From: Candidatus Woesearchaeota archaeon
Lineage (GTDB): Archaea > Nanobdellota > Nanobdellia > Pacearchaeales > GW2011-AR1
DNA: 64,000 nucleotides
NCBI GenBank assembly: GCA_964437455.1
Contig: CAYTGG010000001.1
Span: 20,930 to 84,929 of the forward strand
Direction of reading: 5' to 3'
In this document: positions 3,504 to 23,533 of the stretch, piece by piece
How positions within the stretch are numbered: position 1 is the first letter of the stretch
Layout of the letters: every line of letters begins with the position of its first letter
Notes under the pieces: generated by a model
The model's database searches: none
What the model was told of the DNA's origin: nothing
The model's input: the letters and a program-made list of their open reading frames with translations, nothing else
Made by a program: the position numbers and the translations under genes

Positions 3504-3636
3504 ATGAAGAAATATTTGCTTCTCATAGAAGATGAAAAGGTCTGGCAGAAATTTAAAGATATTATTAATAAAGATATCAATACAGAAATTATAGATTTAA
3601 TAAAGAAAAGAATTAATTCGGAAGTTAAAAAAAATG
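3504..3636 (+). CDS. Small ORF (44 aa), stop overlapping the start of the 621-aa gene (ATGA); possible leader or first gene of the giant-protein array
   Basis: MKKYLLLIEDEKVWQKFKDIINKDINTEIIDLIKKRINSEVKKNDK*; ATGA overlap at 3634-3637. Confidence 0.3.
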
Positions 3637-5499
3637 ATAAGTAAATTTTTTCCTAAATATAAGAAGTCACAAGTAACTTTATTTATCATATTGGCTATAA
3701 TGATTGTTGCAGGAACAGTCTCTTTTATAGTATTTAAAGATCTTTTTATTCCTGGAGAAATTCCACATAATTTAGAACCAGTTTATGATACTTTTCTTTC
3801 TTGTTTAAATGAGGATATAAAAGTTGGAATTGATATTTTAGAAAGTCAAGGAGGTTATATTAAATTACCAGAATTTGAATCTGGATCAGATTATATGCCC
3901 TTTTCCTCTCAATTGAACTTTGTTGGAACTTCTATTCCTTATTGGTATTATGTTTCTGGAAATAATATCCAAAAAGAACAAATTCCTAGTAAGATAGAAA
4001 TGGAAAAACAATTAGAAAGTTTTGTTGAGGAGAAAATTTATGATTGTTCATTTGAAGATTATTATAAACAAGGTTTTGAAATATCTTTTGGAGAACCTAA
4101 AGTAAATATTAAAATACTCAAAAAAGGAGTTGAAGCTGATATTAATATGAATTTAGCTATTAAAAAAGGAAATGATAGTGTTAGAGTAGAAAATCATAGT
4201 ATTTTAGTTAACTCTAATCTAGGAAATTTGTATGAATCTGCTAAAAAAATTTATGATAAAGAACAGGAAGAATTATTTTTAGAAAAATATACTCTAGATG
4301 TTTTAAGATTATATGCTCCTGTAGATGGAGTTGAATTAACCTGCAGTCCTCTTATATGGAATGCTAACGAAGTTTTTGATGAACTTGAAAATTCAATAGA
4401 AGCAAATATTCTTGCTTTGAAAACAAAAGGAGGAGATTATTCTTTAAAGAAAAAAGAAGATAAATACTTTGTCTTAGACTTAGATGAAAATGCAAGATTT
4501 ATCACTTCTAAAAATTTTAGTCATTCTTTTGAGGTCTCACCCTCTGAAGGATCTATTCTAATTGCTGAACCAGTAGGAAATCAACCAGGTTTAGGTGCAT
4601 TAGGATTTTGTTATGTACCCTATCATTTTGTTTATTCCTTAAAATATCCTGTTCTAGTTCAGGTATATTCTAATAAATTCCAAGAAATTTTTCAATTTCC
4701 AGTCGCAGTTATTATTCAAGGAAATCAACCTAGAGAACCTTTAGAAACTAATGCAATTGAATTCGGAATTCCTGATTTTTGTAAATATAAAAATACATTA
4801 ATGAAAGTAAAAACTTATGATATGAGTTCAAATTCTATTGACTCTCAAATTTCTTATGAATGTCTTGGAACTGTTTGTGATATTGGAGAGACAGAAAACG
4901 GAATTTTAACTTCAGCATTTCCACAATGTGTTAATGGTTATATAATTGCAAAATCAGAAGGATTTGAAGAAACAAAGTATCTATCTTCTACAACTTCTTC
5001 AAAAAATGTAGAAATATTCTTATATAAACTTTATAATTTGAGTATAGATCTGAATTTAGAAGGAAGAGAATATAATGGAAATGCTATAATTCACTTTAAT
5101 TCTGATAAGAATTCGAAAACAATAGTATATCCAGAAAGAAAAAGCGTTGAATTAAGCGAAGGACAGTATGAAATTAAAGTTTATATTTATAGAAATTCTT
5201 CATTAAAATTGGAAGAAGTTACTTATGAACAATGTGTAGATGTTCCTAAATCAGGTTTAGGAAGTTTTTTTGGTTTAACAGAAGAAAAATGTTTTGAAAT
5301 GAAAGTTCCTGAGCAAATAATTCCTCAATCTTTAGCAGGAGGAGGAACACAAAATCATTATATTTTAGATTCTGATTTAAAAAATTCAAGAAATATTAAA
5401 ATAAATGTACAAAGTCTTCCTGAACCAAAAACTATTGAAGATTTACAAAATAATTATTTATTATTTGAAGATAAAGGCTTAAATATTTTATTTAGATAA
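3634..5499 (+). CDS. Membrane-anchored (N-terminal TM) extracellular protein, 621 aa; partner of the giant protein
   Basis: N-terminal TM helix LFIILAIMIVAGTVSFIVF, then a large Cys-containing ectodomain; a 24-nt gap to the 2051-aa gene suggests co-transcription. Confidence 0.6.
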   Translation: MISKFFPKYKKSQVTLFIILAIMIVAGTVSFIVFKDLFIPGEIPHNLEPVYDTFLSCLNEDIKVGIDILESQGGYIKLPEFESGSDYMPFSSQLNFVGTSIPYWYYVSGNNIQKEQIPSKIEMEKQLESFVEEKIYDCSFEDYYKQGFEISFGEPKVNIKILKKGVEADINMNLAIKKGNDSVRVENHSILVNSNLGNLYESAKKIYDKEQEELFLEKYTLDVLRLYAPVDGVELTCSPLIWNANEVFDELENSIEANILALKTKGGDYSLKKKEDKYFVLDLDENARFITSKNFSHSFEVSPSEGSILIAEPVGNQPGLGALGFCYVPYHFVYSLKYPVLVQVYSNKFQEIFQFPVAVIIQGNQPREPLETNAIEFGIPDFCKYKNTLMKVKTYDMSSNSIDSQISYECLGTVCDIGETENGILTSAFPQCVNGYIIAKSEGFEETKYLSSTTSSKNVEIFLYKLYNLSIDLNLEGREYNGNAIIHFNSDKNSKTIVYPERKSVELSEGQYEIKVYIYRNSSLKLEEVTYEQCVDVPKSGLGSFFGLTEEKCFEMKVPEQIIPQSLAGGGTQNHYILDSDLKNSRNIKINVQSLPEPKTIEDLQNNYLLFEDKGLNILFR

Positions 5500-5522: not shown

Positions 5523-8500
5523 ATGAATAAAAAAATCCTAATAATTTTTGGAATGTTTCTTTTAATAGGAATTTTCTTAATAATAAGTATCTCAGCAACT
5601 TATATGCGTTCTAATGCTGCTTATACTACTTCTGGAACAAGTTTTAATTATAATTATGGATATTCAGGAGAATGGCAGGTTGATAGTTCTATGTGCGAGG
5701 CTGGACAAGATTTTGTAATTCAAATTGCTCCTTTTGGATGTGAGCCAGCTGTTGTCAGAAGTGATTTACTTGAAGAGCAGAATGTTCCTGTTTATTGTCA
5801 ATTAGGAGCTACTAAAATAAATCCTTTAATAGAAGTTGAAGCTATTGAAAGCATAGATTTTTCTGGAAATTATCCTAAAGAAATTGCTGGAGTTGGTTTT
5901 CATCCTGCAAAGGCAGCTTTGGGATTAGATGGAGATTTAAATTCTCCAATTTTGAATAATATTGGTTATGTAGTTATATTATTAAGACAACAATCAAATG
6001 AGTCAGAAATGCCAGATTATGTATCAGGAAATTTAACTGCTAAAATAAGATATGATATAGAAGATGCTTATGGTATCGGAGATGCAACTTTTTATCTTCC
6101 TAAATTAGATGATTTAGAATGGAATTCAAGAAAGAATCAGTATAGTTTTTGGAAAGGAAGAGGTTATCTAAGAGCAGAAGGAATTGAAACAGATGGAGCT
6201 TCAGTTTCTCTTTATGATGGAAAAATGGAAAAAATAACTTCTGTTAATCTAAAAAGAGGAGAAATCTCCAATAAGATTTATCTTCCTGGATTTGATTGTT
6301 TAGCTGGACTTAAATTGAAATTAGAAGGTTTAGAAGCTCCAGATACTCGAGCTAAGTTAGATATTAATGGAGAAATAATAGAAGTTGCAAAAGGTGAAAA
6401 GTTTTTAGAAGAAAGATGTCAGATTGAAGATATTAATAAAAAGGGACTTATAGATTTTGTTGAGATAAAATGCAGAGAAGATGAGCAAGGATTATTTGGA
6501 GGAGAAACTTTTCCTCTAAAAATTAGTCCTAAAATTAATTTGAGTATTTATAACAAAGAAGGAAATTTAATCAAAAAGGGTAGCTTTGACATAGGAGATT
6601 ATCTGTATGATTATGGGCACAAGAGAGTATATTTAGGATATGCTAATACTTTTGGATATAGTAATGAAGAAAAAGATTTGTATGTCCATCTTGTTGCTAT
6701 TCCTTCTTCTGTTAATAAGGATAAATTAACTAATGAAGAAATTGATTCTTTTACATCTTATGATAAAGGAGTTATGGGTAAAGAAGAAGTGAAAAGTATT
6801 TCTAATTTAATAAAAAGTTCATTTGAAACTTATAAGAGTATCTCTATAAATATAGGGAAGTGGATGATAAAAGGACAAAATCTAAGAGCTCTTTCTCTTG
6901 AAGAGGGAAAAACTGAGATTTTTGATTCTCAAATACAACTTCATGGTTTTGCAGGAGCACAAAATATTAAATTTGATAATAAAAAAATTGAATATTATTA
7001 TGAGAAATCTATGGAAAGTTATGATAAAATTGTAAATTCATATTCTAATGAGAAACTTCCTTATGGATTATATGAAGAAGGAATAACTTCTGGAGAAGAA
7101 GCTTTTTACAGAAAAATTTCTCTTGCATTTAGCTTAGGACAAAAAAAGACTGCTTATGATTTGTGTGAAGAGTTTAAACAAAAATATCCTAATTCAGAAA
7201 AGAATTTAAATGAATTTCTTAATGAACTTTATAAATTCTCAAATAAAGAACTTTCAAGTATAGATGTTATAATTAATGGAAAATCAAGGAAAATCTCTTT
7301 TGAAGGAATATTTGAACCAAGTATAAATGATTATTCTGCTAAAATTTTTATAGAAGGAACAGATGGAAAAATTAATGAGATTACTCTGACTAAAGGGCAG
7401 ATATATTCCTTAGGAGAATTAAGAGGAGATAAAGACTTTATCTATACTTCTTATCTGGGAGAAGCTTATCCTCTACATTTTTCATTTATATCAAATAAAT
7501 GGCATTGGTCCTTTGATAAAAAAATCTGGAAAGAAGTTTCTATAGAAGAAGGAAATAAAATTAAAGAAAATATTGATGAATACTTTACAGGAAAATTAAT
7601 TTATCCAGATTTCATTCCCTCTTCTACTATAGTAAATTCTGAGGAAATTGATTCAACAAAGAAATTATTTTATTATTTAAGTAATTTAGATGATATAAAT
7701 AGTTTTGAAAAGGGAAAAGATAAATTAAGTGAAGAAGGATATAGTGGAAGTGTTACAGAAGAGTATATTAAACTTGTAGAACTTGAAGATAACTCAGCAA
7801 AATTAGAATTTAATCTTCATCCAAAGGGTTTTTGGAGCACTGCTAAGACAGTTACAATATCAAATGATAAAGGAACATTAACAGAAGATACTCCTGAGGA
7901 CTTTGGAAGTGATTTTATTTTTACACTTACTGATGTAACTCTTAAAAAATCAGCAAAAGTTTCTGTAATACCTACAATAGATTATGCAGGCTCTGAAACC
8001 AACTTTTCTTTTAAAATTGGAATTGATAAAAGAGCAATAAAACTTTCTCCTGATAAAATTGAAGAAAAGATAGAAAATTTAAATAAGAGCATTACAGATT
8101 GGGAAGAGAAATCAGAGAAATTAGGAAAAGTTGTGAAAGGACTTAAAACTGCTTGTTTAGCTACTGGTTTATATCTTGTTACTAAGAATTTTCTTTCAAA
8201 TGCAGGAGGAAAATCAATAGCAAGACAAAATATAATGAGATCAAAAGGAGGATGGAATGAAGAATGTAGTAAGCTGGTTAAAGAAGGAAACTATTCTTCT
8301 TTAAATGAATGCTTTACTAAAAATGGAGATAAAATAGAAAGTGATGTGAATAAATATTATGAACAATTAGAAAAACAAAATAATGAAATTAAGAATATGC
8401 AAGAGCCTTTTGAGAATAAAAACTGGTGGGGTGAAAAAAATGTAAATACCGAGGAATTTAAAAAAGTTTATTGTAAGAATGTAAGAAATGAGTTAAATGG

Positions 8501-11500
8501 TCTAGAAAGTACAAAGAAAATAGATTTAGGAGGAGGACAAACAAAGACAGTTTCTGAAATATTAAATGTTATACAAAATGATTGTGAAGGAATTACAGTA
8601 GAACAATTAAGAAGAATGCAGTTAAATTATAGATTGGAGAATATTGATTTGAATTTAAATGTTGCTGGAGAACAATTGGATATAGATTTAGCAAATGTTT
8701 GGGAGGATAATTATAAAGAAGCTGAGAGAGAGAATTTTGAAAAAGAAGCGATTGAAAAAGGAGTAATGAATCCTAATGCTATAAATATTCCTTCAAAAGA
8801 CTCAATAGACATTGCTTATTTTGGTTCTAAGGTTGCTTCATCTAGTAAATTAAGCATAAAAGAAGGAACTCCAATTCAATTAATAACATTTAATCATCAA
8901 GAGTATTATCTAGAATTAGAAGAAACAAAAAAAGGAGAGTTATATATTATAAAGAATGTTTATAATAGTGGTGGTAGCCTTCTAAAAGAAAATGATTTAA
9001 ATGTTGTATCTATTAAAGAAAGAGTAGGAACTATTAAGAAATATGACAAAAAATCTTATGAGAACAAATATGTAAACTCTGTTAGTGATCCTAAAAAACC
9101 TGTTTTGAAATATTATGAAACAGAGCCATATAAAGAGATGCCTGCTTTGGTTCCAGTTGATTTAGATAAAGGTTGGTATGTTTCTATAAAGCAAACTCTT
9201 CCTGTAATGGGAAATATTCAAAGTTATGATAAATCTGGAAAAGTTACTAGCTTTTATCTTTGTAATATTGGAGAAAATGGAAAAGAAGAGGATAGAGGAG
9301 GAGATGATATCTGTGAAATGATAAATACAGGAACAGGACAGCCATACAATCAATTTTATGGATTAGATGATTCAGAAGCTTTAAAAATTGTAAAATGTGC
9401 TGTAGAATCAATCGAACAAGCATCAAAACAATATGGAAATAGTAGAGTTACAATTAGGAATTCTTGTGATACTTTTACTGTTTATGTTGGAGAACCTGCT
9501 GTTGATGTTCCAGACGTTCAATGTCAAGATTTTATGTCTCCTAAAGAATGTCAGTGGTTATTTAATGTGTGTGATCCTGTTATCTGTCCTTCTAGTAGAT
9601 GTAATCTAGGAGGAAATTATCATGTAGCAGATGTAATTCAATCAGGAATTATTGGAAGCATTGTATTATGTTTTCCAAATATAGGAGAAGGAATATATAT
9701 TCCAGTATGTCTTACAGGAGTTCAAGCTGGACTTGACGCATATCTCTCTGTATTAAAATCTTATAGAGATTGTTTAACAGATTCATTAAAAGAAGGAGAA
9801 TTGATAGGAATCTGCGATGAAATATACTCTATACATTTATGCGAGTTTTTCTGGAGACAGACTCTACCTTTAGCAGAAATAGCAATACCTAAATTAACAG
9901 AATTTGCAATGGGACAGAATATTCATGGTGGAGGAGAATATCTTGGAGTTCAGGCTGCATGGGATAATGCTGGAAAATCTGCAGAATATTTTGCAAATTA
10001 TTATGCTTCAACTTCTTTTGAAGCATTTAAATCTAAAATAGTCGAGAAAGTAGGAAGTGAGATATGTGGAAGTTACTCCTCTGCTGTTTATCCTGAAGGA
10101 GGAGATTTATTAGATTCTCTAACAGAACCAGATTCTCCTCCTCAATATTATGGAAGATTTGATGAAATTACTTTAACTACTGTAACTAATCCTCCAACAT
10201 CACAGTATAAGGTATATTATCATATATATGCTGGAAAAGAATCAAGAGCTTATTATCAAGTTTATTTAAAAGAAGGTTATAAAAGCTCTTTTTATAAGGA
10301 TACCTCTTATAATAAAATAGTTGATTCAGGTTATATTTCTAAAGGAGAATATGTTTCTGAGACAAAAGACTTTACTGCACCTTCAGGATATCAACAAATG
10401 TGTATAGTTGTTAATGGAAAAGAAGAATGTGGTTTTAAACAAGTTTCAACATCTTTTGCTATTAATTATGTGGAAGATAAATATTTAGAAGAACAAGCAA
10501 GTCAAAAGGATATAACTTCAGAAAAAGAATGTATTTCTGGAAGTGCAAGCATTTATAGTGTCCTAAATCCAAATCTTCAAAGTGCTGTAGAAGAAATGAT
10601 TAGTCCTGAAATTTATAATAGAGGAATAACTAGAATATGCGCTACTAAGAATCCTGGAATAGGAACAGATACTAATGTAGAAGAGAAAAACTCTAGATGG
10701 ATAGATGTTGGTTATTGTGACGATGAGAATATGAGATGCTGGCTTGATTTAAGTAGTGTTAAAGAGGTTATAGAAATTCTTTATATTGAAAATGAAACAT
10801 TAGATTCTCTTACAAATAAATCTCTTAATGCTTTACAATCTGATGGATTTTTATCAGAAGAAAAATTTAAGGATATTCTTAATGAAATATCTCAGTGTGA
10901 AACTCCAGAAGAAAAAGTTAATAAAATAGATAAAACTCTTGATGAAGAAGATCTTCTCAATAGTCAAAAAGTCAGATTGTTTTTACAAAAAGGAGATATT
11001 TGTAAAGAATTAGCTGAAAAGAGTTATGGAGAAGAAAATGCTAAGAATATTCTAATTAAAGATTCAGATGAAGGTCCAGGAGTTTATGATTCTGATTCTG
11101 ATCAATTAGGAGATGAAGAAAAGAGAACTTGCCAGGAATTATTAGGTGAAGAAATAATAAAGATAGCTAGAGAAATTAAAAATGAGAAGAATATTGATGA
11201 CTCTAAAGTTAAAAATGATACAGGAGTTAAGAATTTTGAATGTTTAATATTGCAACTTGCTATGCAGGAAAGCTCTCTTAAACATTGTAAAGAGATTAAA
11301 GAAGGGGACTGTTTATATTGTGATGGGAATTTAGATAAAGTTTTAAAAGCTTCTGGAGATGGAAAAAGTTATGGAGTTATGCAAATAAATTTAGGAGCTC
11401 ATAGTAATATTGATGTTGAGAATTTTGAAGAGAATGTTAGATATGGAATTAATTATTTAATTAGTAGTTATTCTGAAACTTCTAAATATTACGAATGTCT

Positions 11501-11678
11501 TGATATTTATTATAACGGATGGAATCGGGCTTTAAGATATTATAATGGATGGAATACAGATTGTAGTAAAGGAAATGTTAATTATGTAGAAGAATTAACA
11601 GGTAAAAAGGATAAATCTTATTCTGGAAATACTAAAGAGGAAGTAATTAAATTATTTCCTAATATCTGCGGAGAGTAA
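5523..11678 (+). CDS. Giant secreted/surface protein (2051 aa) with N-terminal signal/TM, a Cys-rich central module and a C-terminal lytic transglycosylase (GH23/SLT, lysozyme-like) domain
   Basis: N-terminal hydrophobic ILIIFGMFLLIGIFLIISISA; the C-terminal ~180 aa carry SLT signature motifs in order (LQLAMQESSL, catalytic Glu, around nt 11268), SYGVMQIN, IYYNGWNRALRYYNGWN, i.e. the E-S / GLMQ / AYNAG pattern of family GH23. Confidence 0.8.
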   Translation: MNKKILIIFGMFLLIGIFLIISISATYMRSNAAYTTSGTSFNYNYGYSGEWQVDSSMCEAGQDFVIQIAPFGCEPAVVRSDLLEEQNVPVYCQLGATKINPLIEVEAIESIDFSGNYPKEIAGVGFHPAKAALGLDGDLNSPILNNIGYVVILLRQQSNESEMPDYVSGNLTAKIRYDIEDAYGIGDATFYLPKLDDLEWNSRKNQYSFWKGRGYLRAEGIETDGASVSLYDGKMEKITSVNLKRGEISNKIYLPGFDCLAGLKLKLEGLEAPDTRAKLDINGEIIEVAKGEKFLEERCQIEDINKKGLIDFVEIKCREDEQGLFGGETFPLKISPKINLSIYNKEGNLIKKGSFDIGDYLYDYGHKRVYLGYANTFGYSNEEKDLYVHLVAIPSSVNKDKLTNEEIDSFTSYDKGVMGKEEVKSISNLIKSSFETYKSISINIGKWMIKGQNLRALSLEEGKTEIFDSQIQLHGFAGAQNIKFDNKKIEYYYEKSMESYDKIVNSYSNEKLPYGLYEEGITSGEEAFYRKISLAFSLGQKKTAYDLCEEFKQKYPNSEKNLNEFLNELYKFSNKELSSIDVIINGKSRKISFEGIFEPSINDYSAKIFIEGTDGKINEITLTKGQIYSLGELRGDKDFIYTSYLGEAYPLHFSFISNKWHWSFDKKIWKEVSIEEGNKIKENIDEYFTGKLIYPDFIPSSTIVNSEEIDSTKKLFYYLSNLDDINSFEKGKDKLSEEGYSGSVTEEYIKLVELEDNSAKLEFNLHPKGFWSTAKTVTISNDKGTLTEDTPEDFGSDFIFTLTDVTLKKSAKVSVIPTIDYAGSETNFSFKIGIDKRAIKLSPDKIEEKIENLNKSITDWEEKSEKLGKVVKGLKTACLATGLYLVTKNFLSNAGGKSIARQNIMRSKGGWNEECSKLVKEGNYSSLNECFTKNGDKIESDVNKYYEQLEKQNNEIKNMQEPFENKNWWGEKNVNTEEFKKVYCKNVRNELNGLESTKKIDLGGGQTKTVSEILNVIQNDCEGITVEQLRRMQLNYRLENIDLNLNVAGEQLDIDLANVWEDNYKEAERENFEKEAIEKGVMNPNAINIPSKDSIDIAYFGSKVASSSKLSIKEGTPIQLITFNHQEYYLELEETKKGELYIIKNVYNSGGSLLKENDLNVVSIKERVGTIKKYDKKSYENKYVNSVSDPKKPVLKYYETEPYKEMPALVPVDLDKGWYVSIKQTLPVMGNIQSYDKSGKVTSFYLCNIGENGKEEDRGGDDICEMINTGTGQPYNQFYGLDDSEALKIVKCAVESIEQASKQYGNSRVTIRNSCDTFTVYVGEPAVDVPDVQCQDFMSPKECQWLFNVCDPVICPSSRCNLGGNYHVADVIQSGIIGSIVLCFPNIGEGIYIPVCLTGVQAGLDAYLSVLKSYRDCLTDSLKEGELIGICDEIYSIHLCEFFWRQTLPLAEIAIPKLTEFAMGQNIHGGGEYLGVQAAWDNAGKSAEYFANYYASTSFEAFKSKIVEKVGSEICGSYSSAVYPEGGDLLDSLTEPDSPPQYYGRFDEITLTTVTNPPTSQYKVYYHIYAGKESRAYYQVYLKEGYKSSFYKDTSYNKIVDSGYISKGEYVSETKDFTAPSGYQQMCIVVNGKEECGFKQVSTSFAINYVEDKYLEEQASQKDITSEKECISGSASIYSVLNPNLQSAVEEMISPEIYNRGITRICATKNPGIGTDTNVEEKNSRWIDVGYCDDENMRCWLDLSSVKEVIEILYIENETLDSLTNKSLNALQSDGFLSEEKFKDILNEISQCETPEEKVNKIDKTLDEEDLLNSQKVRLFLQKGDICKELAEKSYGEENAKNILIKDSDEGPGVYDSDSDQLGDEEKRTCQELLGEEIIKIAREIKNEKNIDDSKVKNDTGVKNFECLILQLAMQESSLKHCKEIKEGDCLYCDGNLDKVLKASGDGKSYGVMQINLGAHSNIDVENFEENVRYGINYLISSYSETSKYYECLDIYYNGWNRALRYYNGWNTDCSKGNVNYVEELTGKKDKSYSGNTKEEVIKLFPNICGE

Positions 11679-13963: not shown

Positions 13964-14875
13964 ATGTCAGAAAAAATAAAGCTTACCTTTCTTGGAACTG
14001 CTGATGCAATACCTAGTGCTAAAAGAAATCATACTTCTATTTTATTAAATTATAAAGAAGAGAACATATTAATTGATTGTGGTGAAGGAACTCAAAGGCA
14101 ATTTAGAAAGAAAAAATTAAATCCTTGTAAGGTTACTCGTATTTTAATAACTCATTGGCATGGAGATCATGTTTTAGGTATTCCTGGTTTATTATCTACT
14201 TTAGCATTTAGTGGTTATAATAAGACTCTTTATATCTATGGGCCTCAAGGAACTGAACTTTCTATAAAAAGAATTCTAGAATTATTTAATTTTAAAAGAG
14301 ATTATGAGATTAAAGTTGAGGAAATTAAAGGAGAAGGTAGAATATTTTTTGAAAATGATGATTTCTATTTAGAAGCAGAATCTATGACTCATAGAATTCC
14401 TTGTAATTCTTATACTTTTGTCAAAAAAGGTTTGAGAAAAATAGATAAAAAAAAATTGTTAAAAGTAAAATTACCTGCTGGACCTTTATTAAAAAAATTA
14501 AAAGAAGGAGAGAATATAATATATCAAGGAAAGAAGTTTTATTCTAAAGATTTAACTTTTGAGGAAAAAAATAAAAAAATCTCTTTTGTTTTGGATACCT
14601 CCTTAAATAATAAAATTGTCCCTTTTGTAAAAAACTCTGATTTATTAATTTGTGAATCTACTTTTGGTTCTGAACTTGAGGAACATGCTAAAAAATATAA
14701 ACATCTTACTTCTATCCAATCTGCACAAATTGCAAAAAGTGCTAAAGTTAAAGAACTTATTCTGATTCATATAAGTCAAAGATATAAAAATTCTAAAAAA
14801 ATTCTACAGGAAGCAAAAAAGATTTTTAAGAATGTTCAAATAGCAGAAGATTTTGATAGAATAGAAATAGAATAG
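13964..14875 (+). CDS. rnz: Ribonuclease Z (tRNase Z, metallo-beta-lactamase fold)
   Basis: LTFLGT..AIPS..RN.TS....... ILIDCGEGTQ ... ILITHWHGDHVLGIPGLL (HxHxDH motif). Confidence 0.85.
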   Translation: MSEKIKLTFLGTADAIPSAKRNHTSILLNYKEENILIDCGEGTQRQFRKKKLNPCKVTRILITHWHGDHVLGIPGLLSTLAFSGYNKTLYIYGPQGTELSIKRILELFNFKRDYEIKVEEIKGEGRIFFENDDFYLEAESMTHRIPCNSYTFVKKGLRKIDKKKLLKVKLPAGPLLKKLKEGENIIYQGKKFYSKDLTFEEKNKKISFVLDTSLNNKIVPFVKNSDLLICESTFGSELEEHAKKYKHLTSIQSAQIAKSAKVKELILIHISQRYKNSKKILQEAKKIFKNVQIAEDFDRIEIE

Positions 14876-14912
14876 AAAACCTTTTAATAGTTTTTATTTC
14901 TTCTTTTTCTAT

Positions 14913-14986
14913 GCCTCCGTAGCTCAGCTGGATAGAGCATTAGCCTTCTAAGCTAGGGGTCGCAGGTTCGAATCCTGTCGGGGGCA
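14913..14986 (+). tRNA. tRNA-Arg(UCU)
   Basis: GCCTCCG-TA-GCTC-AGCTGGATA-GAGC-A-TTAGC-CTTCTAA-GCTAG-GGGTC-GCAGG-TTCGAAT-CCTGT-CGGGGGC-A; anticodon TCT. Confidence 0.85.
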
Positions 14987-15046
14987 TTTTTATATTTTAT
15001 TTATTATCCAAAAATTTTAATACTCTGTAATTCTCTAAAAAAATAT

Positions 15047-15245
15047 GCGGAGATGGCACAGCGGCTACTGCAATCGGTTGCAGCTGAGGGGCACCAAGGT
15101 TCCCCTTACACTAACTCTTCCTTTTTGGAAAGAAGAAATGTAAGGAATTAAATGGCCTAAACCTCTTACACTAACTCTTCCTTTTTCGGAAGGGAAAGGA
15201 AAGGCAAAACCCGATTTTTCGTGGGTTCGAGTCCCACTCTCCGCT
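15047..15245 (+). tRNA. tRNA-Cys(GCA) interrupted by a 126-nt intron at the canonical 37/38 position
   Basis: Exon 1 is 15047-15083 (acceptor GCGGAGA, D-arm GCAC-AGCGGCTA-CTGC, anticodon stem ATCGG, loop TTGCAG). Exon 2 is 15210-15245 (C38, CCGAT, TTTTC, GTGGG-TTCGAGT-CCCAC, TCTCCGC, discriminator U73, the Cys identity element). The acceptor and T stems are perfect. Confidence 0.7.
15084..15209 (+). other. tRNA intron (126 nt) with a bulge-helix-bulge splice motif and an internal duplication of about 30 nt
   Basis: Exon nucleotides 32-35 (TTGC) pair with intron nucleotides n-5..n-2 (GCAA), giving a 4-bp central helix flanked by 3-nt bulges A-G|C and A-A|C. The intron holds two copies of CTTACACTAACTCTTCCTTTTT(C)GGAAG, each a CTTCC-TTTTT-GGAAG hairpin. 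Confidence 0.6.
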
Positions 15246-15264
15246 TTAAATAGATTAATAAAAT

Positions 15265-15300
15265 AATAAATTGGACGAAGAAAGGATGCTGGATCGAAAA
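15265..15300 (+). repeat. 36-nt element AATAAATTGGACGAAGAAAGGATGCTGGATCGAAAA downstream of tRNA-Cys; a near-identical copy lies downstream of tRNA-Asn at 52310-52345 (minus)
   Basis: Two mismatches between the copies; both lie about 20 nt past a tRNA 3' end in the same relative orientation. Confidence 0.6.
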
Positions 15301-15694: not shown

Positions 15695-17194
15695 ATGAAA
15701 ATAAAAATAAAAAAAGAGGATGTTTATCTAATCATTGCAATTATAATTGCTTTAGGAACTATATTTCTTACATATTTGGGAGGAAAATCAACAGGTTTTG
15801 GAATTCTAGAAGATTATAATACAGAAGAAGAATGTGTAATTTCAGGATATTCTTGGATAAATGAAACTAACACAACTTGTACAAATATAACCACTTGTAT
15901 AAATGAAACAATTGAACAGTGTGAATGTTTAGAATATGAAATCATTAATGAAACAACTAATGAAACTGGAGACTGTATTAATTGGTCTTCTTTTGTTAAT
16001 GAAACCTGTTCTGAACAAGAAAATTGTGTAGAAGCTGTGATTGGAGGATATTGTACTGGAGATTGTAGCCCTTCTCATTTAGAGTTATGTAATGAAACAA
16101 ATTGTGAGGATATTGGAGGAGGATATTGGTATGATGAAACTTGTAATGTAGAAGAAGAATCTTCTTGTAGCAATAATTTAGAATTATGTAATGAAACAAA
16201 TTGTGAGGATATTGGAGGAGGATATTGGTATGATGAAACTTGTAATGAGGATGAATGTGATTCAGATGAACAATGTGATTCTGGTTATGAATGTGATGAT
16301 GGAGAATGTGTAATTTTAGAAAATGAAACTGAAATCTCTGAAGAAACTGAAACAACAGAATCTGCTTCTGAAAGTTCTGAAATTTCTGAGAGTATTACTC
16401 AAATAACTCCTAATTCTGAAGAGGTAATTTCCACAACAGAATTAACTATTTATGATATTTCAAAAATAGAATTAAAATCTTTACAATCTCAGGAAAATGT
16501 TTTGATAGCTAAAAATACAGGAACAGAACCTTTAAGCTCTTGTATACTTAAAGCTACAGGAGATTTATCTGATTGGATTAGTATTTCTGGAGAATCTAAG
16601 AATATAGGCTCTGGAGAAGAAAAGTCATTTAATTTTGTCTTGAATATTCCTGAAGGAACTAATCCCGGATCTTACAATATGGGTCTTTCAATAGAGTGCT
16701 CTGAATTAAGCAAAGGAAAAGAATTTTCTGTTAGTGTTATTAAAGAAACTTTTGAATTTGATCTTCTTAAAGTAAAGAAAATAAGAGATGAAAGAGTTAA
16801 AGCAGAATATACTCTTTCAGATTTATCAGGATTAGACCAAAGTATTAAATTAGATTTTAAACTTATAGATAATCAAAGTAAAAAAGTTTCTGAAACCACT
16901 GAGTTCAAAAATCTAAGTGCTAATCTTTCAAACAAGTTTTATACCCTTTTAGAAATTAATGAATCAGTAGAGGGAAATTTAACTTTAATGGTAGACTTAA
17001 ACTCAGAAACTTATTCAAGTTCTGTCCAAGAGCCAATAGTTCTTACTTCTCCACCAATTTTAGGTTTTGCTGTCTTTGATAACATAGGAGATTTAGGAAA
17101 CATAATTCTTTTAGTATCTTCTTTACTAGTATTATTTCTCTTAATCTTTTTAATAAGAAGAATTAGAAAGAGATCTAAAAAGAAAAATTCTTAA
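15695..17194 (+). CDS. Acidic Cys-rich repeat surface protein with N-terminal signal/TM, many N-x-T/S sequons, a C-terminal Ig-like region and a C-terminal TM anchor with basic tail
   Basis: Internal exact repeat LELCNETNCEDIGGGYWYDETCN x2 (nt 16083-16150 and 16176-16243); many sequons of the NET/NIT/NES type; C-terminus ...SPPILGFAVF...LLVLFLLIFLIRRIRKRSKKK resembles a PGF-CTERM-like sorting signal. Confidence 0.55.
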   Translation: MKIKIKKEDVYLIIAIIIALGTIFLTYLGGKSTGFGILEDYNTEEECVISGYSWINETNTTCTNITTCINETIEQCECLEYEIINETTNETGDCINWSSFVNETCSEQENCVEAVIGGYCTGDCSPSHLELCNETNCEDIGGGYWYDETCNVEEESSCSNNLELCNETNCEDIGGGYWYDETCNEDECDSDEQCDSGYECDDGECVILENETEISEETETTESASESSEISESITQITPNSEEVISTTELTIYDISKIELKSLQSQENVLIAKNTGTEPLSSCILKATGDLSDWISISGESKNIGSGEEKSFNFVLNIPEGTNPGSYNMGLSIECSELSKGKEFSVSVIKETFEFDLLKVKKIRDERVKAEYTLSDLSGLDQSIKLDFKLIDNQSKKVSETTEFKNLSANLSNKFYTLLEINESVEGNLTLMVDLNSETYSSSVQEPIVLTSPPILGFAVFDNIGDLGNIILLVSSLLVLFLLIFLIRRIRKRSKKKNS

Positions 17195-18737: not shown

Positions 18738-19796
18738 ATGTTTATTGAAAATATTCTAAACTTTTTTTTAGAAAATAACTCTTCTAGAGACTATATCATT
18801 TCAGCAGGAATATTTCTAGGACTTTTCTTAATTCTTAAGTTTTTTAATTCTTATTTTGTTTATATTCTAAAAAAGATTACCAAAAAATTAAAAACAACTT
18901 GGAAAAATCTTGTTATTGATTTTCTTGAGGCAATTAAATGGCCCTTTTATGCTTATTTAGCATTTTATATTGCTACAGCATACTTAGTATTGTCAGAAAT
19001 TCTTAGTAAGATTCTTTTTTATATATTAATTGTTTTTATTACTTTTTATATTTCTAAAGGAGTAATTAGTATTTCTAATCATTTTTTTGAAAGATATAGA
19101 GAAAAGAAAAAAAGAAAGAATGAAAAGACAAGCGAATCAATGATTAATGTAATGAAATTTATTGTTAAAATTCTTATTTGGACATTTGCTTTATTGATGA
19201 TTCTTTATAATTTTGGAATTCAAATAACTCCTTTAATTGCTGGTTTAGGTGTTGGAGGTATTGCTATTGGTTTAGCATTACAAAATATTCTTAGTGATTT
19301 GTTTTCAGCTTTTGCAATTTATTTTGATAAACCTTTTGAGGAGGGCGATTTTATAATTGTGGGAAATGATATGGGTGTGGTAAAGTATATTGGAATAAAA
19401 TCAACAAGAATTCAAGCATTAGGAGGACAAGAATTAGTTGTTTCTAACAGGGAACTCACATCTATAAGAATTAATAATTATAAAAAGATGAACACAAGAA
19501 GAGTCTTATTTAATTTTGGTGTAGAGTATGGTACTAGCAATAATAAATTAAAAAAAATAAAAAAAATCTTAGAAGAGATTATAAAAAAAGAAGAACATGC
19601 AAATTTAGATAGAGTTCATTTTAAAGAGTTTGGAAATTCAAGTTTGAATTTTGAAGTTGTTTATTATGTTGACTCAAAAGATTATAATGTTTATATGGAT
19701 ACTCAAGAAAAAATTAATCTAAAGATAAAAGAATCTCTAGAGAAAGAGAAAATTAGTTTTGCATTTCCTTCTACGAGTGTTTATATGAAAGATTAA
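18738..19796 (+). CDS. Small-conductance mechanosensitive channel (MscS family)
   Basis: TM3 with GLGVGGIAIGLALQNILSDLFS followed by the beta domain (GDFIIVGNDMGVVKYIGIKSTRIQALGGQELVVSN). Confidence 0.85.
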   Translation: MFIENILNFFLENNSSRDYIISAGIFLGLFLILKFFNSYFVYILKKITKKLKTTWKNLVIDFLEAIKWPFYAYLAFYIATAYLVLSEILSKILFYILIVFITFYISKGVISISNHFFERYREKKKRKNEKTSESMINVMKFIVKILIWTFALLMILYNFGIQITPLIAGLGVGGIAIGLALQNILSDLFSAFAIYFDKPFEEGDFIIVGNDMGVVKYIGIKSTRIQALGGQELVVSNRELTSIRINNYKKMNTRRVLFNFGVEYGTSNNKLKKIKKILEEIIKKEEHANLDRVHFKEFGNSSLNFEVVYYVDSKDYNVYMDTQEKINLKIKESLEKEKISFAFPSTSVYMKD

Positions 19797-23008: not shown

Positions 23009-23533
23009 TTACGGTTTTATCCATCCAACTTCATAATAAGTTATGTCTCCTTCTTCATCTACAATCGCCAGGAGTAATTTCTTCTTTGTACTATGTGCTA
23101 CTCGATTTTTCGCAGAGAATTCATGCCAAGTAATTTTTTCAGATTCATATTCTGTAAAAACTATCCATCTAGCATGTTCTTTTCCTGGTTTTATTCCTTT
23201 ATCATAAACTCTAAAATCTGCACCAAACTTCAAAGCTGTTTTTACAACATATCCTCTTTCTCTTAAATCTTTAAATACAGAATATTTTATTTGTATTCTT
23301 TTATCTATTCTTTTAATCTTATTAAATAATTCATCTTTTGATAATTCCTTTTTTCCAGAAAATATAACCATCTTTCCTTTCTCAGTTAAATAAATCCCTT
23401 CAGAAAGCATATAATGGATTCTGTTTTCTTGTACTTCTCCAAATCTACTTTTCTCATAAATTGAGTAAGCATTAGAATCATTACTTGTAATTATTCTTCC
23501 ATCTAGATATGCTTTAATTTTTTGTTTTTCCAT
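23009..23533 (-). CDS. endA: tRNA-splicing endonuclease catalytic subunit (EndA)
   Basis: FGADFRVYDKG...HARWIV...NRVAHSTKKKLLLAIVD..YYEV.W carries the Y/H/K catalytic triad motifs; 174 aa. Confidence 0.8.
   Translation of the reverse strand: MEKQKIKAYLDGRIITSNDSNAYSIYEKSRFGEVQENRIHYMLSEGIYLTEKGKMVIFSGKKELSKDELFNKIKRIDKRIQIKYSVFKDLRERGYVVKTALKFGADFRVYDKGIKPGKEHARWIVFTEYESEKITWHEFSAKNRVAHSTKKKLLLAIVDEEGDITYYEVGWIKP

Follow-up and report, generated by a model that had tools for sequence, protein, structure and literature searches.

Introns of archaeal tRNA genes are 11–129 nt long with medians of 12–25 nt, except for those of tRNA-Trp, which host a box C/D RNA (2014 review, PMC4090602). For Haloferax volcanii, introns of 103, 75 and 31 nt have been described that require a strict bulge-helix-bulge (BHB) motif, and excised introns were found as circles (PMC7714728). 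The archaeal group I introns described in PMC6125680, including those from Pacearchaeota, all reside in rRNA genes. Reports on archaeal tRNA introns of 255 nt or of at least 301 nt were not found in the literature searched.

The DNA stretch analyzed in this study (64 kb; in the following referred to as the window) features a G+C content of approximately 27% and an archaeal gene set, and the best protein matches of its encoded GlyRS are labelled Pacearchaeota, Nanoarchaeota or Woesearchaeota, which identifies the host as a DPANN archaeon. The window very probably harbours a working tRNA-Cys gene that is interrupted at position 37/38 by an archaeal, EndA-spliced BHB intron with a repeat-prone interior. 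With 126 nt, this intron comes close to the published maximum but stays within the range, whereas homologous introns of 255 nt and at least 301 nt are outside. A preliminary description of the locus had stated that the intron is several times longer than usual for archaea, which agrees with the published range and medians (PMC4090602).

The tRNA-Cys gene, its predicted splicing motif and processing enzymes

Using ARAGORN with introns allowed (option -i), a tRNA-Cys(GCA) gene was called at exactly 15047–15245 on the plus strand (199 nt including an intron of 126 nt, 73 nt after splicing, CCA not encoded). The Rfam tRNA model (RF00005; gathering score 29), applied with permissive filters, returned the same interval with 38.3 bits (E = 8e-7) and an insertion in the anticodon loop. 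The proposed tRNA-Cys(GCA) with a 126-nt intron was therefore recovered by two independent detectors. Default ARAGORN and the default (gathering-threshold) filters of Rfam missed the gene at 15047–15245, and automated pipelines would consequently score the genome as lacking tRNA-Cys. In DPANN genomes, missed calls of this kind distort completeness values as well as claims that a tRNA is 'missing'. A second tRNA-Cys gene was not found elsewhere within the 64-kb window.

Exon 1 (15047–15083, plus strand) comprises tRNA positions 1–37 and ends in the anticodon GCA (15080–15082) followed by G37, as deduced from the alignment with intron-less orthologues. Exon 2 (15210–15245, plus strand) was delimited by ARAGORN and the same alignment and comprises positions 38–73 with the U73 discriminator, read as T at 15245. 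ARAGORN recognized the hand-joined exons (37 + 36 nt) as a tRNA-Cys of 73 nt in which the acceptor stem has 7 bp and the discriminator is U; the spliced product is therefore 73 nt long and not 72 nt as given in the preliminary description. The latter had also referred to a 'perfect' tRNA-Cys. The 7-bp acceptor stem, U73, the GCA anticodon and G37 hold, but the D stem consists of three Watson-Crick pairs and one C:C mismatch.

The intron itself (15084–15209, plus strand) was delimited by means of ARAGORN, the orthologue alignment and folding. ARAGORN placed the junction at 35/36, and the sequence is ambiguous by two nucleotides at this site because GCAG... opens the junction region and ...GCAAAA closes the intron. 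Intron-less syntenic orthologues from two related species (L007 and L008) read ...GGTTGCAG/CCCGAT... and ...CCTGCAG/AGCGAA... (slash: junction). Since both run straight across the proposed junction, the intron interrupts the gene at 37/38, the canonical position, and G37 is part of the mature tRNA, as had been assumed initially. Based on these orthologues, the 35/36 junction was dropped.

The anticodon arm together with the intron was folded by unconstrained energy minimization. In the resulting structure, the 5-bp anticodon stem (helix h) continues directly into a central helix of 4 bp (ensemble probability 0.79), in which U32, U33, G34 and C35 (15078–15081, plus strand) pair with GCAA (15204–15207, plus strand) within the homologue-invariant GCAAAA. 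Two bulges of 3 nt flank this helix, namely A36-G37/C(i1) on the 5' side (15082–15084, plus strand) and A-A/C38 on the 3' side (15208–15210, plus strand), with predicted cleavage after 15083 and 15209, respectively, according to the orthologue-derived junction. The predicted geometry, with two 3-nt bulges on opposite strands, a 4-bp helix between them and the splice sites within the bulges, corresponds to the canonical BHB motif, and the unconstrained fold thus bears out the motif suggested in the preliminary description. Pairing of TTGC (positions 32–35) with GCAA was likewise recovered, but GCAA does not represent the intron terminus, since two A residues follow in the 3' bulge. Hairpin 1 of the intron (UGAGGGG...CCCCUUA, 15085–15108, plus strand), which was obtained in folds of the window and of homologues, begins at intron position 2, right after the 5' bulge, and serves as outer helix h'. 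Accordingly, h' is a local hairpin within a three-way junction, and the 5' and 3' parts of the intron do not form a continuous helix. In the predicted fold, this local hairpin represents the one departure from the textbook hBHBh' form and counts against a plain BHB reading.

The tRNA-splicing endonuclease EndA (174 aa) was confirmed at 23009–23533 on the minus strand, approximately 8 kb from tRNA-Cys, by both of its Pfam domains (PF02778 and PF01974). It aligns end-to-end with the homotetrameric enzyme of M. jannaschii (1A79; E = 3.6e-36) with a single gap of one residue, and hence was classified as a homotetramer-like single-unit enzyme. The Tyr, His and Lys positions of the catalytic triad of 1A79 are aligned and kept. 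Loop insertions known to broaden specificity were not found at the described sites (alignment to 1A79; PMC5829648), and the window does not encode an EndA paralogue. Furthermore, an RNase Z-like metallo-beta-lactamase gene (13964–14875, plus strand; Pfam Lactamase_B, Lactamase_B_2 and Lactamase_B_4) is located directly upstream of the tRNA-Arg/tRNA-Cys pair, and this synteny is kept in relatives; judging from its domains, the product is likely a tRNA 3'-end processing enzyme. An RtcB ligase was not detected among the 16 larger window ORFs scanned, which was counted against the splicing interpretation.

The adjacent tRNA-Arg(TCT) gene (14912–14987, plus strand) was called by ARAGORN as intron-less and was compared with its counterparts in relatives, of which L007, L010, L012, L013, L015, L018, L027 and L028 possess introns of 14–47 nt. 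This pattern is the reverse of that observed for tRNA-Cys and suggests frequent gain and loss of introns in this clade. Concerning further genes of the region, a public gene call for a 603-aa GlyRS in L008 (10001–11812) overlaps the tRNA-Cys gene at L008 10077–10148. Many GlyRS homologues are called at 550–600 aa compared to 484 aa in the window, and the longer calls may be over-extended at their N termini. Upstream of tRNA-Leu, ORFs of 2051 aa (5523–11678, plus strand) and 621 aa (3634–5499, plus strand) were observed; the former lacks a Pfam match in the public annotation of identical contigs and the latter in the Pfam scan performed here.

Direct repeat, strain variants and homologous introns

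Repeat search revealed two directly repeated copies of 31 nt within the intron, showing 90% identity at a spacing of 60 nt. Copy 1 (CCCCTTACACTAACTCTTCCTTTTTGGAAAG; 15102–15132, plus strand) contains a CUUCC-U5-GGAA hairpin, and copy 2 (CCTCTTACACTAACTCTTCCTTTTTCGGAAG; 15162–15192, plus strand) is part of the conserved 3' module. The internal duplication of a hairpin unit of approximately 30 nt, as noted in the preliminary description, is therefore real. An exact 22-nt core of the repeat occurs twice in the 64-kb window compared to 0.00 occurrences expected by chance, and further copies of the repeat unit are absent from both strands of the window.

Contigs of the same species were selected by GlyRS or RNase Z proteins identical to those of the window. 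The 126-nt intron recurs base for base in six independent metagenome assemblies besides the window, which rules out an assembly artefact. Samples with the 126-nt allele include JGI 3300001533, 3300001335 and 3300077562-64. An exact-match scan of a metagenome collection with the 22-nt core yielded 0 matches; since L001 and L003, both from JGI metagenomes, carry this core, the scanned collection evidently does not index those samples.

A shorter allele was detected in strain L002, which is identical to L031 (JGI 3300077567). Its intron of 66 nt differs from the 126-nt form solely by lacking exactly one period of 60 nt (15105–15164, plus strand; register ambiguous inside the 22-nt exact repeat), and the junction between both forms falls inside this repeat. 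A difference of exactly one period with its junction in 22 nt of identity is characteristic of slippage or unequal recombination. Of all haplotypes, that of the contig carrying the 66-nt allele is the most diverged (19 mismatches over 3.7 kb vs. 0–8 in the others). An MscS-type channel gene, located in the window at 18738–19796 (plus strand) between GlyRS and the next ORF, is absent from this strain. Divergence and missing MscS gene together indicate a distinct strain and not a collapsed assembly.

With respect to the 'recent expansion' proposed in the preliminary description, the repeat is indeed polymorphic between strains, but for the 66-nt allele, an origin by repeat-mediated deletion is no less likely than an ancestral state. 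The spacer of the 126-nt allele shares the 12-nt module AAGGAA(T)TTAAAT with the intron centre of the sister species contig L040 at a comparable position (p of approximately 0.015 by shuffling). This match weakly favours the 66-nt allele being a derived deletion rather than the ancestral state and is suggestive only. Two more repeats of variable copy number were found in the same 2.5-kb region of sister strains, so that the instability of repeats characterizes the locus as a whole rather than the intron in particular. As a length variant, the duplication is polymorphic and apparently neutral.

Intron distribution among relatives was determined by two scans. The first, based on the exon-1 core and one genome per species, covered 19 species with an identical core, 17 of which possess no tRNA-Cys intron; L022 and L027 contain one at the same site. 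The second scan, in which metagenomes were queried with the junction of intron end and exon 2, added L028 and L029. In total, homologous introns at the same site were counted in five other Pacearchaeota-like lineages, L029 and L040 being the same organism, with lengths of 44 nt (L027), 71 nt (L022), 73 nt (L028), 255 nt (L040) and at least 301 nt (L029). In coding genes, L022, L027 and L028 show synteny with the window and a nucleotide identity of approximately 70–79%. Their introns are nevertheless recognizable only by the GCAAAA end, the position-2 hairpin and short motifs such as CUUAC and CUUCCUUUUUGG.

All homologous introns share their last six nucleotides (GCAAAA), and their interiors are unalignable. 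The window, L002, L022, L028 and L040 possess a hairpin that begins at intron position 2. Its sequence differs in L022 (GUAAAAGAAC/GUUCUUCUUAC vs. UGAGGGG/CCCCUUA in the window) and in L028 with the structure being kept in both, and is identical to that of the window in L040. Unconstrained folding yielded the BHB motif for five of six introns (126, 66, 71, 73 and 255 nt). The 44-nt intron of L027 is the exception, with a BHB probability of 0.03, which counts against the BHB interpretation, and a predicted fold within 1.4 kcal/mol of the BHB fold.

The longest homologues originate from the sister species. L040 (c3008–3335) comprises a complete tRNA-Cys gene with a 255-nt BHB-type intron containing a 46-nt tandem array. 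L029 (1–274) features one more unit of this array, resulting in an intron of at least 301 nt. L029 was also considered as the lone 3' half of a split tRNA, which was rejected as the longer contig L040 carries exon 1 255 nt upstream. ARAGORN wrongly labels the L040/L029 gene as tRNA-Ala(TGC) by moving the junction. Compared to the window, exon 1 and the first 32 intron nucleotides of L040 are identical (32/32) and the last 40 nt or so are about 90% identical, whereas the centre of 183 nt, which holds the array, is unrelated. As judged from these alignments, conservation is confined to the intron ends, and the hypervariable centre accumulates tandem repeats. Identity of the 5' module over 32 of 32 nt beside an unrelated centre is more than the BHB motif alone obviously needs, and hence counts against considering the intron as neutral filler.

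Regarding the structural contribution of the interior, the BHB probability is 0.79 in the 126-nt and in the 66-nt allele alike. Introns with shuffled interiors reached a mean of about 0.5 compared to 0.6–0.85 for natural introns. The idea that the natural interior favours the BHB motif was discarded, as the gain over these controls was not significant. Since shuffled interiors form the motif nearly as well, the interior is probably neutral in structural terms. The whole precursor folds better than its shuffled versions (z = −3.0), whereas the intron alone does not do so significantly (z = −1.6; 16 of 200 shuffles were equally good).

Further repeats and elements were observed next to tRNA-Cys. 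In sister strains (L033 3762–4025, also L030 and L034), two to three tandem copies of a 94-nt unit directly follow the gene. Each unit consists of the last 21 nt of tRNA-Cys (GTTCGAGTCCCACTCTCCGCT), 55 nt of trailer and an 18-nt junction (CTCGCAGGAGGTTTTCAA). The single-copy equivalent in the window (15225–15300) lacks the 18-nt junction. Several contigs end at this array, which could be an attachment-site-like scar or a product of slippage. A conserved element of approximately 95 nt is located 20–40 nt 3' of the intron-less tRNA-Cys genes of L011, L016, L017, L019 and L021. It comprises a terminal stem (GGGGYG...CGCCCY), a GACUC-UUC-GAGUC hairpin, which in L017 contains 53 inserted nucleotides, and a long UUGGAAAG/CUUUCCAA hairpin. 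Its 3' end (...CCCTCCGCT) resembles that of the tRNA itself. The element has no Rfam match and is absent from the window. Moreover, the window contains a Cys-rich, repeat-containing ORF of 499 aa (15695–17194, plus strand) with an internal repeat of 99-nt period and no Pfam match; its length is 499, 501, 529 or 532 aa depending on the strain.

Alternative explanations and proposed splicing route

Modelled on the box C/D RNA inside euryarchaeal tRNA-Trp introns, the intron may be regarded as encoding a stable, probably circular, small RNA. In this case, the end modules and the CUUCC-U5-GGAAG hairpins would be functional, for instance as sites for protein binding or as a guide RNA. This explanation is unlikely, although the conserved ends shared with L040 around unrelated centres agree with it, the 5' module being the best argument, as do the good folding of the whole precursor and the knowledge that excised archaeal tRNA introns are circularised and detectable (PMC7714728). 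The preliminary description had raised a hosted small RNA and pointed to the leading CTGA, for which the results offer no support: a C box (UGAUGA, one mismatch allowed) was found neither in the linear nor in the circular intron, the single CUGA at intron positions 1–4 is missing in L022, L028 and L027, and the Rfam search of the intron gave no family at E ≤ 10. A box C/D sRNA host was rejected on these grounds. More generally, the insignificant folding of the intron alone, a natural strain dispensing with one repeat copy, the absence of the intron from most related species, and the lack of an antisense target in the window, where the repeat unit recurs on neither strand, argue against a functional RNA. 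Likewise improbable is a selected hypervariable cassette, whose excised circular RNAs would differ between strains and act in their own right, for example as a guide, a decoy or a sponge for proteins. If true, strictly conserved end modules would enclose a repeat-prone centre that attains at least 301 nt in the sister species, a length more than double the longest one published for archaea.

Delivery of the central insert and the duplication by a mobile element or integrase, with intron gain and size change reflecting repeated integration and excision at tRNA-Cys, is very unlikely. Scans of a viral collection with the repeat unit and the 5' module yielded 0 matches, and no other copy of the repeat unit exists in the window. 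Neither an integrase nor a transposase was noticed beside the locus, which is flanked by genes for S8e, an Sm-like protein, RNase Z and GlyRS as well as the unannotated repeat-rich ORF. The patchy presence of the intron among relatives at similar distance and the tandem 94-nt units of sister strains, which open with the last 21 nt of tRNA-Cys like an attachment-site scar, would fit such an origin, and element-driven tRNA disruption within an archaeal population has a precedent (PMC3293823). However, the 66-nt and 126-nt alleles differ by one repeat period with the junction in 22 nt of identity, and length differences of whole repeat units occur in the nearby ORF as well, so that instability is general in the region. 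A non-functional pseudogene, or a duplication created by assembly, has hardly any likelihood. That standard annotation tools skip the gene and several contigs of the species stop near it may raise this suspicion, but the contigs break off in the 94-nt array downstream of the gene and not in the intron, and the 126-nt sequence recurred unchanged in six independent assemblies plus the window. Furthermore, both exons are undamaged and agree with functional intron-less orthologues, different lineages have retained the ends that form the BHB, and the window offers no other tRNA-Cys. Two further candidates were dismissed, namely a group I intron (no match at E ≤ 10 for the window locus or the 255-nt homologue) and a split or permuted tRNA (exons contiguous and in order according to ARAGORN).

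For the EndA-spliced BHB intron, the following route is proposed, for which we infer actual cleavage, ligation and circularisation as well as neutrality of the interior. In the precursor, the anticodon stem would be extended by the U32–C35/GCAA helix, flanked by the bulges A36-G37/C and A-A/C38, and the hairpin beginning at intron position 2 would provide the outer helix. Cleavage within both bulges would be catalysed by the single-unit EndA, whose gene lies 8 kb away. For joining the exons to the 73-nt tRNA with G37 and for circularising the intron, a ligase of the RtcB type, which was not seen among the window ORFs scanned, would be responsible. Selection would keep only the BHB-building ends and the flanking hairpins, with the centre drifting freely and becoming longer or shorter through tandem duplication and repeat-mediated deletion. 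One of these events would have produced the 31-nt repeat with its 60-nt spacing, the copies of which would then have recombined or slipped, giving rise to the 66-nt allele of the sister strain.

Provided that splicing takes place as predicted, this intron family indicates for natural populations that an EndA-spliced intron needs its ends only. Its interior tolerates gain or loss of 60 nt between strains and reaches at least 255 nt in the sister species, beyond the published 11–129 nt. The forms of 44, 66, 126 and 255 nt constitute a natural series for studying how a plain single-unit EndA handles long and branched substrates.

Comparison with known archaeal systems

The intron resembles canonical 37/38 BHB introns (PMC4090602) in its site, in the two 3-nt bulges around a 4-bp helix of anticodon loop and intron, and in the cognate EndA being encoded. 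It differs from them by its length of 126 nt, by having a local hairpin, placed in a three-way junction, as its outer helix, and by a strain-polymorphic direct repeat. Also comparable are the tRNA-Trp (103 nt) and tRNA-Met (75 nt) introns of H. volcanii, which are likewise long, inserted at the canonical site and processed by a simple EndA, the BHB motif being predicted in the present case (PMC7714728; PMC4090602). Excised introns are circularised in H. volcanii, and a circle is presumed for the window intron. The H. volcanii tRNA-Trp intron contains a box C/D guide RNA, whereas the window intron lacks a C box, a conserved D box and an Rfam match. Moreover, the host tRNA is Cys here and Trp or Met in H. 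volcanii.

Co-existing intron-structure variants of one tRNA gene in a natural archaeal population were also described for Caldiarchaeum (PMC3293823). The Caldiarchaeum variants concern intron number and gene splitting and are linked to a putative transposable element of 1.8 kb; in contrast, those reported here differ by one 60-nt repeat period in a single intron with no element nearby. In common with previous work on disrupted tRNAs of DPANN archaea (PMC5829648), a single-unit EndA and a tRNA missed by standard predictors were found. In that study, DPANN EndAs with a C-terminal L3 loop were tied to non-canonical introns, whereas the alignment of the window EndA with its M. jannaschii counterpart has only a one-residue gap, and both position and motif of the intron are canonical. 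The intron is very probably an ordinary EndA-spliced intron, unusually long and of a well-known type, and the accepted picture of archaeal tRNA splicing is unchanged.
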